A stretch of 64,000 nt of DNA, taken from contig OX597831.1 of the NCBI GenBank assembly GCA_951406725.2, positions 74,586,001 to 74,650,000 of the forward strand, in the 5' to 3' direction. The DNA comes from Octopus vulgaris (Eukaryota). Under the pieces are notes generated by a model that did not search any database, was not told where the DNA came from, and worked only from the letters and a program-made list of their open reading frames with translations. Positions 18,811 through 60,995 of the stretch are shown here, one piece after another. The position numbers and the translations under genes are program-made. Within the stretch, counting starts at the first letter, position 1. Each line of letters begins with the position of its first letter.

Positions 18811-19744
18811 CCTCCAGCCAAGGGAGAATCCGGGAAACGTGCTCTTTGAGTGAGAAGGAGCTTTATCCTTTCTTTTTAAAATAGAAAAGGCAGAAATGAC
18901 TTTGGTGAGATTTGAACTAATACCACGAAATATTCTGTCCAACACGCTGACGATTCTGCCAAATTCTTTGAAACAATCCTTCAGTTTAATATATTTACAC
19001 GGTGTCTGACGATAGTTGTACTAGCGTAGCTACAGTGTGTGCCGCCCGCGAATTTTTTTTCCCACGAGAGTTCCGGACCTCAGCAACGAACTCATTTGCA
19101 TACAGCCAATCAGAGCTCACCGTGACCTTGTTCTATACAAACAACTACGCAGAGGCAGCCATGCGGATAACGAAGGTTCAGATCCGTTCAGCTCTCAGAT
19201 TGTGCCTAGACGCAAAGCCCAACATAACAAAACCAGGACGGTGGAGCTCGTTGCTCACACGTAACCATCGTTCATCTTTCTTTTCTTGCACGGACGTTCA
19301 ATAGAGCGGACGTTATTTTTCTCCCTCTTCTATCTTTTTTCTTTTCAAAAAAATATTTTTCACAACATTAACTATTTTCCACTCGTTCTCGTCTAACGAC
19401 CCTCCATGTTTGTTTTCGTTCGGTTTCCTTGTATGTCTCCACTGTCCAGTTTTTGTTCCCAACTATGACCCTTCACAAATCCAAAATATTATTTTGGAAT
19501 TTATGGGAGCAACTGTCTTCGCAGACTCATATTGTCGCTGAATGGTCGAAATGAGGAGTAGATAGACAGTCGACAACTGATGAAGGGTCAGTCTCTATGT
19601 TACTTGTCTTGTTTTCCTTTTTTTTTCCTCTCGTTATTTGCATATTTAACTCGTTTTTTTTCGTACTTCATGTTGTTTACACAGCTGGTGATGTCCTGTA
19701 CCCTATGCATATATACTATTTATATTATTATATATAATAATATA

Positions 19745-19799
<55 letters not shown>

Positions 19800-19990
19800 G
19801 CAAGATTTTTTATGTGAAGTCGTGTGTTGAAACAGATATTGTTGTATTTAGGAATGGTCATTTTGCCAGTTTAGCCAATAAAAACACACGCACTATATAT
19901 TTGGTGTTACTTTGCTTCAGTATTATTTATTTTTTACATTAATCGTAATCTTATTTCGACCAGAGTTCTTTCGTCACACTCCTGTGACAG

Positions 19991-21430
19991 AATTAAGAGG
20001 TAGATCACCCACAATTACTTCTATGGCTAGGAAGACCCATATAGTGAGATGGAGCGGATGGACCAGAGCCATACGGACCCCCTCAAATGTCCATCAGGTA
20101 AAGAAAATGATCGCACATGCATTAGGAGCTAGTATAAGAGTTACCCTAAAAGGCCACACGTTTAAGTTTAACAATAAAATATATGCCCAGGACGAGGGGG
20201 CAGCCATCGGCATTAGTATCGCCGGTGATGTGGCCAACCTTTTCATGGTATGGTGGGACAGAAGGCTTAAAGAACGCCCGACACAGAACTCCATACTCGT
20301 GAACATGTACTCTCGCTATGTTGATGATATCAACATAGTAGTAAAGGCACCCCTACAAGAGAGTACTGTTGAAATAGATATAGAAACTAATACTATGGAG
20401 AGCATCCAGCAAATAGCTAACTCCATCCACCAGAGTATTAAGGTCACAATAGGCTACCCTACTAAACACCCTAACCATAGACTACCAGTACTAGACACAG
20501 AACTATGGCTAGAAACTGAGAATAATAAAACCCGAATCCTTCATTCGTACTATGCCAAACCTATGGCCTCCAAATACTTGATCCACCGGAACTCAGCTAT
20601 CGCGGACAATGCCAAATTCAATATTTTGATGGCAGACCTCGTCAGAATAATGCAAAATGTGTCCCGCATGTGCGAGCCTACAGAGTTAAAGAGACACATA
20701 CAACGTTTCGTTCACCGCATGCAGTTCTCAGGTTACAGCCATAAAGAAAGGATCAGAGTATACAAAGGGGGCCATGTGAAATTTGATAATATCTTATGTA
20801 ATGATAGGAATGGGATTTGCCCTCTCTATAGGAGCAAGTCATGAAACACTATGGAAAGGACAAAGAAGAAAATAGGGAAGGCCAACTCTTGGTATGATAG
20901 CCACAAATACCAGTGTCATGTTCGTCGACACAACCCCTAGAGGTGAACTGGCGAACCGCTTTAGACGGATCCTAGACAAACTTAAGCTAAGGATTAAGGT
21001 TGTTGAAAAGCCAGGCAACCCTATCAAATCCATAATCGGTAGAACCTACCCTTTTAGTAGAACCCCCTGTACAGATAGGTACTGTACTGTGTGTCGATTT
21101 AGCCCACAAACAAACTGTAAAGCCAGAAATGTAGTATATAGTATAAGATGTATAGAGGGACGATGCAGTAACAAGACAACGACATACGTAGGGGAAACGA
21201 CACGAAGCATAGGAGAGCGGGTAAATGTACATTGGAGAGAACTTATGGAAGGAAAGAGCTCATAACTTCTGTACCAACATGCCGAGCAAGAACACGGGGG
21301 CTCAATCAACAACATAGCAGTTAAAATCTTGTCCACACATAGAACAGACGCAACAATCAGACAAATTACGGAGCTACACACATAATAGAAGATAAACCTA
21401 GCCTGAATAGGAAACTGGAATGGAACACTA
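19991..21430 (+). mobile_element. Penelope-like retroelement, 5'-truncated and frameshifted: RT C-half plus GIY-YIG endonuclease (Neptune-like linker)
   Basis: ORF 19912-20844: FKFNNKIYAQDEGAAIG..AGDVANLFM, YSRYVDDI, LPVLDTELW, YAKPMASKYLIHRNSA. ORF 20894-21265: CTDRYCTVC linker then NVVYSIRC...YVGETTRSIGERV (GIY-YIG). Breaks near 20840 and 21265. Confidence 0.92.
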
Positions 21431-21588
21431 GCACCTACCACAACATATGACAGAGGAAGATCCCCATAAACTGGTTACAATATAAACAAAACTGAAAACA
21501 TAATAAAATAAAATACACAGATAAATAAACAAATGGAAATAAATAACTATATACATTTTTTTAATTTCTAAATTTTTTTTATTTTTAA

Positions 21589-21795: not shown

Positions 21796-21864
<69 letters not shown>

Positions 21865-23490
21865 CATGGGATTTGGGCCTTGATAAGTGTGCTAAAGCAA
21901 CTTTTGTAAGAGGCAAGCTCAGGCAAACAGCTTCTGTTAAATTAGATATTGACACTACCATCAAGGAACTTGACCCACAAGAAAGCTACAAATACCTAGG
22001 AATCAACGAAGGAGATGGTATACATCATGCTACTATGAAGGAAAAAATAAGAAAGGAGTACTATAGGAGAATAAGGCTTGTACTGAAGACTGAACTCAAC
22101 TCCAAAAATTGCATTGAGGCCATTAACACCCTGGCACTTCCAGTAGTCCAGTACAGTTTTAACATCATTAACTGGAACCTTACGGAACTCCAACGCTTGG
22201 ACAGGAAGACAAGAAAGTTACTGACATCCAGGAGCATGCACCACCCTAAGGCAGATCTAGACCGCTTGTACCTACCTAGAAGCAGCGGGGGGAGAGGAAT
22301 GATGCAATTGGAGCTGTGCTATAAGACCTCTACTGTAGGAATGAACAGGTACCTATCTAGTACAAAAGACTGGATGCTGCGACTTGTGTGTGAACACGAA
22401 AGCAGCAAAAAGCTGCATTCTATTGTCAAGGAAGCTTATAAGTTCGAAAGGGAACTAGGCATTAACCTTGAATCAGGTGAAGAGCCAGAAACCACTGCTA
22501 CCAAGCAAGCAAAGCGAATCAGGCAGACTGCAAAAAAGAATGGGCAGAATCAAATTGAGAGGCGGTGGAGACAGAAGCCCCTGCATGGACAATACATTCT
22601 CCGAAGCCAAAATGCTGATGTAGACCAAGCAACAACCCATCAGTGGCTGAAGAGTTCTGGATTGAAAGCAGAGACTGAAGGCTTCATAATGGCAGCACAA
22701 GATCAAAGCTTGTTTACCAGAAATTACCAGGCTAACGTTCTCCGAAACGGTACTGACCCTAAATGCAGATTCTGTGACACATTTGACGAAACAATAGACC
22801 ATCTCGTTTCGGGATGTCCTGTGCTGACACCAAACGAATACAAAAATCGCCACGATAGGGTAGGACAGTATATACATTGGAAGATATGTAAACACTACAA
22901 ATCCGACACTCCTGCTAACTGGTATGAACACCATCCTCAGCCAGTTGTTGAAGGTAAAGATGTCACCATCCTCTGGGATTTTCCAGTCAACACTGACAGA
23001 ACGATCAAGGCTAATCGACCAGACATAATTGTTAAAGACAGGGAAGAAAATACCTGCAGACTAATAGAAGTAAGCGTCCCCACTGATAAAAATGTATCTG
23101 TCAAGGAATTTGACAAACTTAGTAAATATAAGGACCTGGAAATCGAAATACAGAGGATGTGGAATCTTAAAACAAAAACTGTTCCTGTTATTGTAGGTGC
23201 CCTAGGTATGATAAAAAAGGGATGTCAGAAACACCTAGACAATATCCCTGGAAAACCATGTCTCAAGGAAATCCAAAAGATTGTGCTAACAAGTACTGCC
23301 CACATCCTTAGAAAAACCCTATCAATGTAAATGTTTGTGTTTGTATTACATGGAGATATTTCTCTACTTCCCCTCCCCAAGCTTTCAGCTATATTTCAAC
23401 AACTCTTAACCTTCACTTGCCCTAGGGCGCTGGGTGTGCCCCGGCAGGTGATTGCATCAAACATGCAGATTAAAAGTAAATGACAATGAT
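21865..23490 (+). mobile_element. R4/Dong-clade non-LTR retrotransposon, 5'-truncated, inserted in (TAA)n
   Basis: Flanked by (TAA)n at 21775-21864 and about 23490-23507; short 3' UTR after the stop at 23330. Confidence 0.9.
21873..23330 (+). CDS. RT thumb region, CCHC zinc knuckle and restriction-enzyme-like endonuclease of an R4/Dong element (partial)
   Basis: 485 uninterrupted codons: GLDKC, YKYLG, RLYLPRSSGGRG, CRFC..ETIDHLVSGC, RHD, NRPDIIV..IEVSVP..KLSKY, PVIVGALG. Confidence 0.93.
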   Translation: MGLDKCAKATFVRGKLRQTASVKLDIDTTIKELDPQESYKYLGINEGDGIHHATMKEKIRKEYYRRIRLVLKTELNSKNCIEAINTLALPVVQYSFNIINWNLTELQRLDRKTRKLLTSRSMHHPKADLDRLYLPRSSGGRGMMQLELCYKTSTVGMNRYLSSTKDWMLRLVCEHESSKKLHSIVKEAYKFERELGINLESGEEPETTATKQAKRIRQTAKKNGQNQIERRWRQKPLHGQYILRSQNADVDQATTHQWLKSSGLKAETEGFIMAAQDQSLFTRNYQANVLRNGTDPKCRFCDTFDETIDHLVSGCPVLTPNEYKNRHDRVGQYIHWKICKHYKSDTPANWYEHHPQPVVEGKDVTILWDFPVNTDRTIKANRPDIIVKDREENTCRLIEVSVPTDKNVSVKEFDKLSKYKDLEIEIQRMWNLKTKTVPVIVGALGMIKKGCQKHLDNIPGKPCLKEIQKIVLTSTAHILRKTLSM

Positions 23491-23609
23491 AATAATAATA
23501 GTAATAAGTGGGTGTATACACATGAACAAAATGAGAATAAACAAAAACGTATATAAAAGTTGATGAACCACCTATTGATCCCCTCCATTTTCTTATTGCT
23601 ATATATAAT

Positions 23610-23860
23610 ACATTCGGAACGCGGAGTGGATGAAACAAAGGCAACTGAAGAAGGGGAATTTTCCTTGTGTTATTTGTCCTGTACAATATTTTTTCGTTGT
23701 TTAAGAAAATTGTTCATTTCCTTGGTTTTGTGTTTATGTTTTCGTTTCTCATTGTGTTCGACGTTTTTGGGGTTTCCTGTACCCATATATGCATGTATAT
23801 ATACATGTAGAGATAGGTACGTACATATATGTATGTATATATGCATATGTTTTTCTTGTT
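23610..23860 (+). repeat. Family X repeat (tandem HHR-like motif carrier); other copies at about 19540-19740, 24050-24370, 25179-25500, 58000-58298 (+) and 57708-57999 (-)
   Basis: Shared CTGA(A/T)GAAGGGGAAT..TTCCTTGTG...GTC.TGTAC...TTTCGTTTCTC.TTG.GTTC...CCTGTAC.C, ending in TA-rich tracts. Confidence 0.8.
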
Positions 23861-24342
23861 GCTTATTTTTTGGTTATAATCACCCCACATAATTTTATGG
23901 ATAATACCATAAAAAAATTCTGGTGTATCTAAGTTAAATACCATATTCATTTGAATATCGTTTTTACGTCCTGTTTGTGTCACATTTTTTTCTTTCCATT
24001 TTTTTCTTTACTCTGCGAAGTAATTTTATTTAATTCTTTCGCAGGAAGGCCTATTTGACGAGTCATGTTCTGTCCTCACCTTCGAAACACGCTGGAGTTG
24101 AACTAGGGACAGCTGATGAAGGGGAATGTTCCTTGTGTAGTTAGTCTTGTACTCTGTTTTTTCGTTGTTAAAAAGGGTCCGTTTCCATGCTTGTTTTTAC
24201 GTTTTCGTTTCTCGTTGAGTTCTACGTCTAGTTGTGGTATCCTGTACTCCCGTATATATATATTTATATATGCATGTATATATACATGTAGATGTAGGTA
24301 CGTACATATATCTATGTATGTATGCATATATTTTATTTATTA

Positions 24343-24370
<28 letters not shown>

Positions 24371-24378
<8 letters not shown>

Positions 24379-25131
24379 ATATTTCGGAATGGTCATTTTG
24401 CCAGTTTAGCCAATAAAAACACACGCACTATGTATTTGGTGTTATTTTGCATCAGTGTTATTTATTTTTTACATTAATCTTAATCTTATTTCGGCCAGGA
24501 GTTCTTTCGTCACACCTCTGTGACCGCATCAGTGGTCCTTTGTTTTCTTCTTTCTTATTTGTGTCTCTCCTTACTAACTGTCAGTCATTTTGTATTTCTA
24601 TTGTATGTCTTCATTTGCGCATGCTTATATCTATATGTGCGTCTATGTTTAGTCAGTGTGTATGTGTGGGGGATGCCTGTAATATTTGTATCTTCTGTTT
24701 ATATACGTTCGTGTAATTTGTTTTTGTTGTTGTTTTTGTTTATTCTTATTTTGTTCATGTGTTTACATCCACTTATTATTATTATCATTACATATATAAA
24801 CAGAAAATACAAATATTACAGGCATCCCCCCACACACACATACACTAACTAAACATAGACGCACATAGAGATATAAGCATGCGGAAATGAAGAAACATAC
24901 AATAGAAATACAAAATGGCTGACGGTTAGTAAGGAGAGACACAAATAAGAAAGAAGAAAACAAAGGACCACTGATGCGGTCACAGGAGTGTGACGAAAGA
25001 ACTCTGGCCGAAATAAGATTAAGATTAATGTAAAAAATAAATAACACTGAAGCAAAATAACACCAAATATATAGTGCATGTGTTTTTATTGGCTAAACTG
25101 GCAAAATGACCATTCCGAAATATAACAATAT
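24371..25131. repeat. Long inverted repeat of family P (arms 24371-24707 and 24791-25131, spacer about 85 bp)
   Basis: Arms are reverse complements with scattered mismatches; the same sequence occurs at 19790-19990, 60722-60995 and, diverged, at 53750-54030. Confidence 0.9.
24966..25009 (+). ncRNA. Hammerhead-like motif of family P (CUGAUGC core variant)
   Basis: CCA-CTGATGCG-GTCACA(GGAG)TGTGAC-GAAAG-AA-CTC-TGG: helix I CCA/TGG, 6-bp helix II, CUC triplet. Identical at 60830-60873; reverse copy at 24493-24538. Confidence 0.6.
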
Positions 25132-25348
25132 CTGTTTCAACACACGACTTCACATAAAAAATCTTGCACAACAAATATACCTTCGAAACACGCATTGAGT
25201 TGAACCAGGGGCAGCTGATGAAGGGGAATATTCATTGTATTGTTTGTCTTGTACTCTGGGTTTTCGTTGTTAAAAAAAGTCCGTTTCCCTGTTTGATTTT
25301 ATGTTTTCGTTTCTCGTTGTGTTCTACGTTTATTTGTGGTGTCCTGTA

Positions 25349-25395
<47 letters not shown>

Positions 25396-25859
25396 TTGTA
25401 TATATACATGTAGATGGAAGTATGTACATATATGTATGTATATATGCATATATTTTATTTATTTATTATATTGTTATTATATGACCGAACGCACGTGTCG
25501 TTTCTCTTCTCCAAGTAAGTTTATATATATATATATATAGAAAATAGTAAAAAGTGAAAAAACTACAGAAGGCTTAAAGGTTAAAAAATATATATATTTG
25601 CGTCAATATGTCTGAAGAATATTAAAAAAAATTTTTTTCCCTTACAATGACATAATTTAGAAGAAAGACCGGTTTCGCGTTTAGCTTTTCAAATTTCTTG
25701 CGACGTTATGTTTATGTTGAATAGAGTTATCGTTATGTTTATGTTCAAAAGAGTTCTAAATAAGGGGAGGTAACGAGTGATTTCTTCCGGTGTAAGGGAG
25801 ATAATCGCTTAAAAATTTTTTCCTTTCCCTTGGTGTGAATTTCTCTGTATCAGTATGTT

Positions 25860-57667: not shown

Positions 57668-57707
<40 letters not shown>

Positions 57708-57710
<3 letters not shown>

Positions 57711-58293
57711 AGAACAATCTTACTTAGAAATGGATGCGCGCGTTCCGTCATATAATAAATAAAACATATGCATATATACATACATATATGTAGGTACCTA
57801 CCTCTACATGTATATATACATGCATATATGGGTACAGGACACCAAAAAAAACTTAGAACACAATGAGAAACGAAAACATAAACACAAAACCAAGGAAATG
57901 GACATTTTTCTTAAACAACGAAAAAATAGAGTACAGGACAAATAACACAAGGAAAATTCCCCTTCTTCAGTCGCCATGGTTTCATCTACTCTGCGTTTCC
58001 ACCTTTGAAACGCAGAGTAGATGAAACCATGGCGACTGAAGAAGGGGAATTTTCCTTGTGTTATTTGTCCTGTACTCTATTTTTTCGTTGTTTAAGAAAA
58101 ATGTCCATTTCCTTGGTTTTGTGTTTATGTTTTCGTTTCTCATTGTGTTCTAAGTTTTTTGGTGTCCTGTACCCATATATGCATGTATATATACATGTAG
58201 AGGTAGGTACCTACATATATGTATGTATATATGCATATGTTTTATTTATTATATGACGGAGCGCACGCATCCATTTCTAAGTAAGATTGTTCT

Positions 58294-58298
<5 letters not shown>
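57708..58298. repeat. Near-perfect palindrome of family X, arms about 292 bp, 7-nt spacer CACCTTT at 58000-58006
   Basis: Arms are reverse complements with only a couple of visible mismatches; (TA)n on both outer sides. Confidence 0.95.
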
Positions 58299-58366
<68 letters not shown>

Positions 58367-59795: not shown

Positions 59796-60057
59796 TTGTA
59801 GTATATATATATATATATATATGCTCAGAGCTTAGTTTTTCCTTGGGGCTGGCCGGATCGGAGCGATATCAGGATTAATCAGCCGAAATTGCTAAGATGA
59901 TCCGGTTCCTGACTGAAGATTAGAGGCTTCGAATGACCTGTCTGTTTTTTTTTGTGTCGTCTCTTTGTGTGGTTTGCGTTCTTGTCCCCTTTAATAAAAT
60001 TTTATATATCATTTTTATACATATATTATTGCGGCGTAACGTACCCCTTTCTCCTAC

Positions 60058-60721: not shown

Positions 60722-60995
60722 TATATTTGTTGTGCAAGATTTTTTATGTGAAGTCGTGTGTTGAAATAGAAATACAAAATGGCTGACGGTTAGTAAGGAG
60801 AGACACAAATAAGAAAGAAGAAAACAAAGGACCACTGATGCGGTCACAGGAGTGTGACGAAAGAACTCTGGCCGAAATAAGATTAAGATTAATGTAAAAA
60901 ATAAATAACACTAAAGCAAAATAACGCCAAATATATAGTGCGTGTGTCTTTATTGGCTAAACTGGCAATATGACCATTCCGAAATATAACAATAT
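60722..60995. mobile_element. Family P copy with internal inversion; HHR-like motif at 60830-60873 (+)
   Basis: 60722-60768 matches 19790-19835 directly; 60769-60995 matches the following P segment in reverse. Confidence 0.8.

Follow-up and report, generated by a model that had tools for sequence, protein, structure and literature searches.

A predicted hammerhead ribozyme of S-G-C order in retrozyme-like elements of an animal genome

Introduction

Several places in a 64,000-nt stretch of Octopus vulgaris contig OX597831.1 (the whole of which is called the window here) carry the hammerhead boxes GAAA and CUGANGA. The original prediction, made for the copy at 24050..24152, read these places as tandem pairs of hammerheads with complementary defects, from whose halves a single catalytic core might be assembled. 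The question is whether the copies hold two damaged ribozymes or one complete one and, if one, in which order its parts are arranged.

Hammerheads of type SGC (HRIMA-1 and variants) were described in metatranscriptome contigs, and in the accessible text the genomes of known organisms contribute one bacterial GCS candidate alone (Eckert et al., 2023; PMC10085705). The same text assumes that block C, which holds CUGANGA, cannot be interrupted. In its SGC-1 and SGC-2 oligonucleotides the stem II 5' strand is followed by 1 base and then by a strand whose partner lies just 5' of stem I, and this I-II interaction helix is required for cleavage in SGC-3. A 2026 paper, in its available part, cites only Eckert et al. 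and two other studies for alternative permutations (PMC13725137). The non-LTR retrozymes of animals are described as having type I hammerheads in units of 150-450 bp (Cervera & de la Pena, 2020, PMC7229834; Li et al., 2026, preprint 10.64898/2026.07.22.740005). For Penelope-like elements, the accessible text of one study calls the role of the hammerhead in mobilisation unsettled and reports another Penelope hammerhead that cut only with protein (PMC11167929); that of a second states that some clades are without hammerheads and lists 'half core' cases (PMC8557442).

Results

Copies of the motif in the window and in the genome

The five plus-strand copies named in the original prediction are all present, with the GAAA/CUGA(U/A)GA-A-GGG motif at 19548/19577, 23616/23645, 24084/24113, 25185/25215 and 58007/58036. 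There is a sixth, inverted motif arm at 57970 (-), within 57705-57999. The source genome is large (2.8 Gb) and rich in simple repeats, and the pattern CGAAA-N24-36-CTGAWGAAGGG has at least 8,569 matches in it, compared with 17 for the reversed control pattern. A separate pattern near the 3' end of this family, which we call family X, gives 8,186 matches and 0 in the control.

The copy at 23946..24348 (+; subfamily A) is a 5'-truncated part of a non-coding unit of ~820-880 nt and has a TA-repeat end; it matches a natural copy (L023) at 91% in BLAST. It contains the whole predicted ribozyme, with private mutations in stem III and in a further helix, P0. Block S (24064..24076, +) consists of the stem III 3' strand, a GUU triplet and the stem I 3' strand, and the predicted cut lies within it at 24069/24070, upstream of GAAA. 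Block G (24079..24091, +) consists of CCUUC, GAAA and the stem III 5' strand, and block C (24107..24119, +) of the stem I 5' strand GGACAG and CUGAUGA. All three blocks are supported by covariation and block S also by a pile-up of 5' ends. The original prediction had already taken CCUUC as the 3' strand of stem II, with the CUGANGA of the core downstream, and had seen that the core is pseudoknotted and outside types I, II and III; we agree on each of these points.

What the original prediction overlooked is block S. It is present in the copies at 24050 and 19540, the latter being a subfamily C copy (19265..19734, +) with a whole ribozyme (upstream stem II strand at 19507, predicted cut at 19531/19532 within AUA, GAAA at 19548 and CUGAUGA at 19577) and with stems I and III wholly exchanged relative to subfamily A. 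The copies at 23610, 25179, 58000 and 57997 (-) have lost block S by 5' truncation, and these four arms start 7-14 nt behind the predicted cut: ~8 nt for 23610..23853 (+), in which GAAA has become GGAA, and for 25179..25537 (+), ~7 nt for 58000..58299 (+; subfamily B), which is the right arm of an inverted pair, and 12-14 nt for the left arm, 57705..57999 (-). Four of the six arms therefore look 'defective' because they are truncated just behind the predicted cut. There is no intact second core, and a whole copy has one hammerhead rather than a tandem pair. The letters after GAAA that had been proposed as a cleavage block read GUG, not GUH, and sit in the linker after stem III.

Order of the blocks

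Block S of each subfamily is complementary to its own partners. In subfamily A, CGUG-U-U/CUGUCC (the slash marks the predicted cut) is complementary to GAAA-CACG and to the GGACAG before CUGAUGA; in subfamily C, CUCA-U-A/UUGUCG pairs with GAAA-UGAG and CGACAA; and in subfamily B, UGCG-U-A/UCGCC with GAAA-CGCA and GGCGA. From 91 pattern-picked copies, 58 were judged non-truncated without use of pairing, 3 flanked by TA repeats were removed by eye and the remaining 55 were aligned by sequence alone. The S-G-C structure is paired in 92.4% of 800 cells, with 163 double changes, which are not independent because they come from few subfamily splits, and a score of 0.500. None of 500 shuffles was as high, a count that is not a probability because the copies are related, and slid registers gave 40-53%. 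An unguided helix scan placed stem I, the pairing of CCUUC with an upstream strand (h, see below) and stem III in its top ranks, and an S-G-C descriptor found 141 motifs in 2.29 Mb of sequence compared with 0 in the reversed sequence. The core has U16.1 in 52 of 54 copies and A, C or U at H in 53 of 53; CUGANGA and GAAA were forced by the search pattern here, and their letters also hold in family Y copies found by similarity (17-20 of 20 for each letter). Stems I, II and III surround this core with covariation in family X and in families Y and Z (described below). The order is S-G-C and not the circular C-G-S with nested stems of types I, II and III, nor are stems I and III closed by a block after CUGANGA, as in type GCS. 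Taken together, these sequence comparisons argue strongly that a whole copy is one hammerhead with the cleavage site first, GAAA second and CUGANGA last, cut at the predicted upstream site.

The original prediction had placed the parts in the order G-C-S, with the cut after a downstream GUC. That GUC is present ~27-33 nt 3' of CUGANGA, is retained in most copies and lies at 24144-24146 in a U/G-rich strand (24129..24147, +) that wobble-pairs with parts of stems I and III in 80.8% of cells, above shuffles. The score is however only 0.278, against 0.500 for the upstream block; the stem I pair next to the core is open in 30 of 55 copies and the third stem III pair in 40 of 53. When the best block was searched for freely in 166 copies, it was upstream in 87 and downstream in 7, and copy 5' ends show no excess at the downstream GUC (2 observed, 1.8 expected). 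Covariation and 5' ends both favour the block upstream of GAAA, and we regard the G-C-S order as highly improbable.

The U/G-rich strand also bears on the second hammerhead that had been proposed. The 'helix I' and local 'helix II' of that unit are paired in 80.2% of cells compared with 80.8% in shuffles, 471 of 500 of which were as high; instead, the segment 3' of CUGANGA folds back on block C in nested folds; it shows no covariation. The strand is predicted to form an off hairpin in this way, and it may be what is left of a former type I core. An origin of the motif from three tandem type I units, each contributing one block, was set aside: the fit of spacing and relic boxes was by eye, and the likeness is also expected from pairing. 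An intron ending at the CAG before the ribozyme was likewise rejected. Of the 55 copies, 29 have A and 25 have G at this letter, which is paired inside hairpin P-1 (see below), and there were no intron joints in the contigs of three putative RNA runs. A search of Rfam with 23560-24240 returned no hammerhead family among 22 matches at E up to 10, and the 150 of 356 matches listed for the whole window were simple-repeat microRNA matches alone.

Families Y and Z

The same fold is found in two further families. The region 55382-55460 (-) had been noted as a similar tandem of two CUGANGA boxes; the box pair does not stand, as only the window copy, out of 20 aligned, has the CUGAAGA at 55457 (-), and the region does belong to a mutated copy of the S-G-C fold (family Y; 55255..55645, -), with H17 at 55457, GAAA at 55440 and CUGAUGA at 55412. 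The other proposed tandem, 42480-42550 (-), has no GAAA within 42420-42620. There is a family Z copy at 977..1685 (+), with the upstream stem II strand at 1504, the predicted cut at 1525/1526 (AUC), GAAA at 1542 and CUGAAGA at 1570, and a second at 59821..60019 (+), with the motif at 59847-59925 and the predicted cut at 59868/59869. Between these two Z copies stem I shows a double change, from UCAAGA/UCUUGA at 1570 to UCAGGA/UCCUGA. The Y/Z pattern has 1,513 matches compared with 3 in the control, and the tandem units are 691-713 nt (Y/Z pattern) or 830-865 nt (Z) long; units of 708 nt are 99.6% alike. Families X, Y and Z are unalike elsewhere, yet the core letters and U16.1/H17 are kept in all three.

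The partner of the stem II strand

In all three families the strand before GAAA has two possible partners: strand h, which lies 21-27 nt upstream of the predicted cut and always places G opposite C11.1, and strand d, which follows CUGANGA after 1, 2, 5 or 6 nt (5-6 nt in Y and Z). In the copy at 23946..24348, h is GAAGG at 24045..24049 (+), with G10.1 at 24045, and d is GGGG at 24121..24124 (+), giving a weaker duplex of 2 Watson-Crick and 2 G-U pairs.

The duplexes formed by h change in sequence and stay paired (GAAGG:CCUUC, GAGCA:UGCUC, GAACG:CGUUC, GGCCU:AGGCC, GGCUG:CAGCC and GGCCG:CGGCC). In family X h is 96.7% paired, with double changes at 3 of the 5 pairs; in 26 Y/Z copies it is 93.8% paired, and one pair, U-A in 19 and C-G in 7, is kept in 26 of 26. 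Of the 12 cluster medoids, 11 have 5-6 Watson-Crick pairs with h, and the remaining one is without its upstream part. The duplex with d consists of 2 Watson-Crick and 2 G-U pairs in most X clusters, and of four pairs in the Z and one in the Y medoid. Overall, h outmatches d in duplex strength in 119 of 141 copies, and a stem II 5' strand 0-2 nt after CUGANGA is possible but weak in X and absent in Y and Z, where the gap is 5-6 nt.

A plain type SGC fold would close stem II through d, with a bulge of 1-6 nt, and leave h, P-1 and P0 as an off state or as a clamp that holds the ends for ligation. This fold is possible because d stays complementary in X, Y and Z. The pairing of CCUUC with the G run after CUGANGA, which the original prediction had proposed, can indeed form in 97.7% of cells of the 55 X copies, but this count is inflated because AGGG was forced by the search pattern, and just one pair is double-changed. 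Four pairs in Y and Z reach 94%; the downstream helix there is at 76.9%, no better than shuffles (359 of 500 as high), and d makes the G10.1-C11.1 pair in just 11 of 20 family Y copies. A bulge at A9/G10.1 is described as usual in Penelope hammerheads (PMC4209133) and has been seen in a viroid (PMC3705267), so far as the accessible text goes, and natural hammerheads tolerate an extra base there; the varying gap between CUGANGA and d counts against the plain fold.

The surroundings of h are informative in both directions. Hairpin P-1 (24012..24044, +) adjoins h, and its five pairs are retained in 44-51 of 54-55 copies, with C-G/U-A and G-C/A-U exchanges. P-1 is flush with h and could stack where A9-G12 must sit, and for this reason h might belong to an off state. 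On the 3' side, the 5' strand of P0 (P0a; 24051..24059, +, damaged in this copy) starts 0-3 nt behind h and pairs with the strand that leads straight into stem I (P0b; 24097..24106, +). The upstream partner of P0b beats the downstream one in 66 of 76 copies of X subfamilies A, B, D and E, 8 of 12 of X subfamily C, 15 of 17 of Z and 5 of 7 of Y. A I-II helix behind strand d is not supported; the partner lies upstream instead. On balance we consider it an even question whether stem II is closed by h, with the core split between A9 and G10.1 in a manner that none of the six described permutations shows, and the plain type SGC fold a possibility that the weaker d duplex makes rather doubtful.

P0 and stem III are separated by an internal loop, GAA/AGUA in subfamilies B-D (alignment A1, columns 50-52 and 89-92), which we take to resemble the rigid loop E (bulged G) motif. 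As P0 and stem I are separated by 0-3 nt, a fold in cis needs a sharp turn at this loop. A strand-swapped dimer would avoid the turn: P0 and stem III would form a straight hairpin, block C (and h) of one unit would dock on the S-G loop of another unit or molecule, and only multimers would cut. Such a dimer is compatible with either partner of stem II. The loop sequence differs, however, in subfamily A and in families Y and Z. Penelope hammerheads are reported as active dimers in the accessible part of PMC4209133, but published SGC ribozymes cut in cis, some of them linking the same two points without a spacer (PMC10085705, accessible text). We consider the dimer unlikely.

5' ends of copies at the predicted cut site

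In order to compare copy 5' ends with the cut, its site was fixed from the structure; truncated copies were already known from the pattern-picked set. The 92 copies scored came from 100 listed places of the 3'-end pattern and up to three neighbours, after dropping copies with identical last 150 nt or with <330 nt of upstream sequence. In family X, 14 of the 92 5' ends lie at -2..+8, compared with 1.9 expected at a uniform rate (P 1.5e-8), and another 14 lie at +9..+21. The rates per base at risk are 0.028 and 0.018 for these two intervals and 0.0016-0.0028 elsewhere, and the peak is at +6/+7 and not at 0. In families Y and Z, 13 of 63 copies start at -2..+13 (3.2 expected), in a set in which GAAA was required and only ends upstream of GAAA are visible.

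The same pile-up might come from a structured element that does not cut and at which reverse transcription stalls. In the control element PLE-1 (L335-L364), 9 of 30 5' ends lie 70-82 nt behind its type I-like site, and by eye most of these are inversion junctions; 2 lie at the site itself. Pile-ups can therefore arise from other causes. Contigs of three putative RNA runs of organism A cross the cut site or leave it unresolved and, in comparison with L203, neither show nor exclude a cut; the unit matched no RNA record in a comparison of word content. Nested folding, which allows no pseudoknots, favours P-1, P0 with stem III and the downstream hairpin, and assigns next to no probability to stems I and II in most whole copies, so that off folds dominate. 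Against stalling, the start of the pile-up coincides in two families with the cut rather than with the 3' edge of the strong helices, and all core letters with U16.1/H17 are kept across three families that are otherwise unalike. We therefore hold a non-cutting element to be quite improbable, and the pile-up to be good but indirect evidence, read from genomic copies, that the RNA is cut.

The host element

The host of family X is a non-coding unit of 780-880 nt, arranged in head-to-tail tandems and with no Penelope ORF. Copies end 3' at a fixed point in TA repeats and their 5' ends form a ladder; long copies extend upstream into the unit's own 3' part. In 29 other subfamily B copies the upstream sequence likewise stays within the unit, and none enters a Penelope ORF; at L297 two 832-nt units are identical. 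Inverted 5' parts, partial tandems and TA targets also occur among the copies. The host has the non-coding tandem unit with one hammerhead per unit that marks a retrozyme; its hammerhead is permuted in order and not type I. As judged from these copies, it is a retrozyme-like element with a Penelope-like insertion pattern.

No ORF of the same element with reverse transcriptase (RT) and GIY-YIG domains was present in the flanks examined, which cover a small share of copies, and a weak tblastn search with one Penelope protein gave no autonomous partner carrying the motif in 420 loci of the same genome. The RT fragment at 19882-21265 was considered as a parent and rejected, as no family X motif lies less than 10 kb from any of six intact 1,312-aa copies; the fragment belongs to a different element that sits within the same TA repeats. 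Four organisms share roughly half of the sequence words of one unit or more. A metagenome scan of 94 loci gave 2 weak descriptor fits without h or P0, which were taken as chance.

Other elements in the window and genome

The intact element, whose 5' ends served as the PLE-1 control above, is a young Penelope-like element with ORFs of 1,310-1,312 aa (L151-L156; parts in the window at 24793-25178 (+), 24371-24795 (-), 19771-21452 and 60765-60995), presumably Neptune-like from its motifs. Its 3'-end pattern has 2,441 matches, and its pLTR has a type I-like hammerhead with CUGAUGC replacing CUGAUGA and a second CUGA(U/A)GC box downstream. Family V (L376:880-1050 (+); L395-L424) is a LINE 3' end with S-G-C boxes. 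Its P0 measures 7 bp and its upstream stem II 3 bp, additional CUGAAGA and GAAA boxes are present, and there is no downstream stem II partner; at 93% identity there is no covariation signal to assess. From its motifs, we take this LINE to have a restriction-like endonuclease domain. A single copy at position 1923 (-) of L048 represents a further S-G-C-like family, and a minimal type I-like hammerhead with CUGAUGA and a short stem II lies at 2150-2195 (+) of the window (GAAACGUA), with similar ones in L035, L046, L057 and L064. CUGANGA occurs 43 times on the two strands of the window compared with 15 for the reversed word, and more hammerhead-bearing families are therefore probably present in it. 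There are also two open frames: one of 488 aa at 21864-23330 (+), the C-terminal part of a LINE with a zf-RVT match, and one of 424 aa at 11137-12411 (+), whose second half is beta-propeller-exon-like by eye and which is probably a host gene.

Discussion

The motif shares with type SGC the block order, the full core, a linker of ~3-5 nt between stems I and II and a helix with one strand just 5' of stem I (PMC10085705, accessible text). It differs in being present in thousands of chromosomal copies of an animal genome rather than in environmental contigs, and in having the module 'stem II 5' strand, 1 nt, interaction strand' before block S where the published ribozymes have it after CUGANGA. 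The published descriptors, as given there, demand CUGAUGAG or CUGAUGAUG and would miss the motifs found here. By analogy, P0 would be the equivalent of the published stem I-II interaction helix. If h and P0a correspond to this module in a shifted, 5' position, the molecule can be read as SGC circularly permuted, with the opening at A9/G10.1. Within the literature searched, which includes few subscription papers and leaves most of the supplement of Eckert et al., with the SGC-variant alignments, outside, the accessible text contains no permuted hammerhead in an animal element and no core split at A9/G10.1; the S-G-C order is reported there solely from environmental sequence, and its occurrence in an animal mobile element appears to be new.

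As the accessible accounts describe them, non-LTR retrozymes share with the host element non-coding tandem units with one hammerhead each, dispersal as monomers and multimers, and co-occurrence with Penelope-like elements. In contrast, the units here are 690-880 nt long with a permuted hammerhead and are known from DNA copies, not circular RNA. TA targets, inverted 5' parts and partial tandems are shared with Penelope-like elements (PMC8557442), and an extra base after A9 with the minimal type I hammerheads of their pLTRs (PMC4209133; PMC11167929), from which the present motif differs in its long stem III, its permuted order and the absence of an ORF in the sequence covered. The intact 1,312-aa Penelope-like element of this genome itself carries a type I-like motif, not S-G-C.

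We propose that the order in the RNA would be h, P0a, S, G, P0b, C, with stems I, II and P0 meeting in a junction like that of published SGC ribozymes and the chain opened between A9 and G10.1. A tandem copy would be transcribed, and the predicted ribozyme would cut once per unit to give unit-length RNA from multimeric transcripts. The monomers could be ligated to circles or left linear, and a Penelope-like RT/endonuclease would copy the RNA in trans, beginning at a fixed point, into TA repeats. Cut linear RNA would be the source of copies that begin at the cut, and circles or uncut multimers that of copies longer than a unit. The fold-back hairpin with the downstream GUC would shut the ribozyme off once it is transcribed, and this hairpin and strand d may represent off or post-cleavage states.

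Our tentative reading, to which we give a little less than even weight, is that the fold adds a seventh topology to the hammerheads, in which the non-circular SGC form is circularly permuted and opened within the catalytic core at A9/G10.1, with an active site made from four stretches, and that it drives long retrozymes that number >10,000 copies in one animal genome and have left cleavage footprints in the germ line. Non-circular permutations were described in 2023 from environmental contigs whose hosts are unknown; here the order is found in a chromosome-level animal genome, where it belongs to a defined mobile element whose many subfamilies lend themselves to covariation analysis and whose tandems include young identical ones. 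An upstream closure of stem II would do away with the rule of an uninterruptible CUGANGA block. S-G-C motifs escape standard type I descriptors, and retrozyme counts and statements that a clade lacks hammerheads (PMC8557442, accessible text) may therefore need a second look. The pile-up of 5' ends would provide a genome-only readout of hammerhead cutting in Penelope-type mobilisation.
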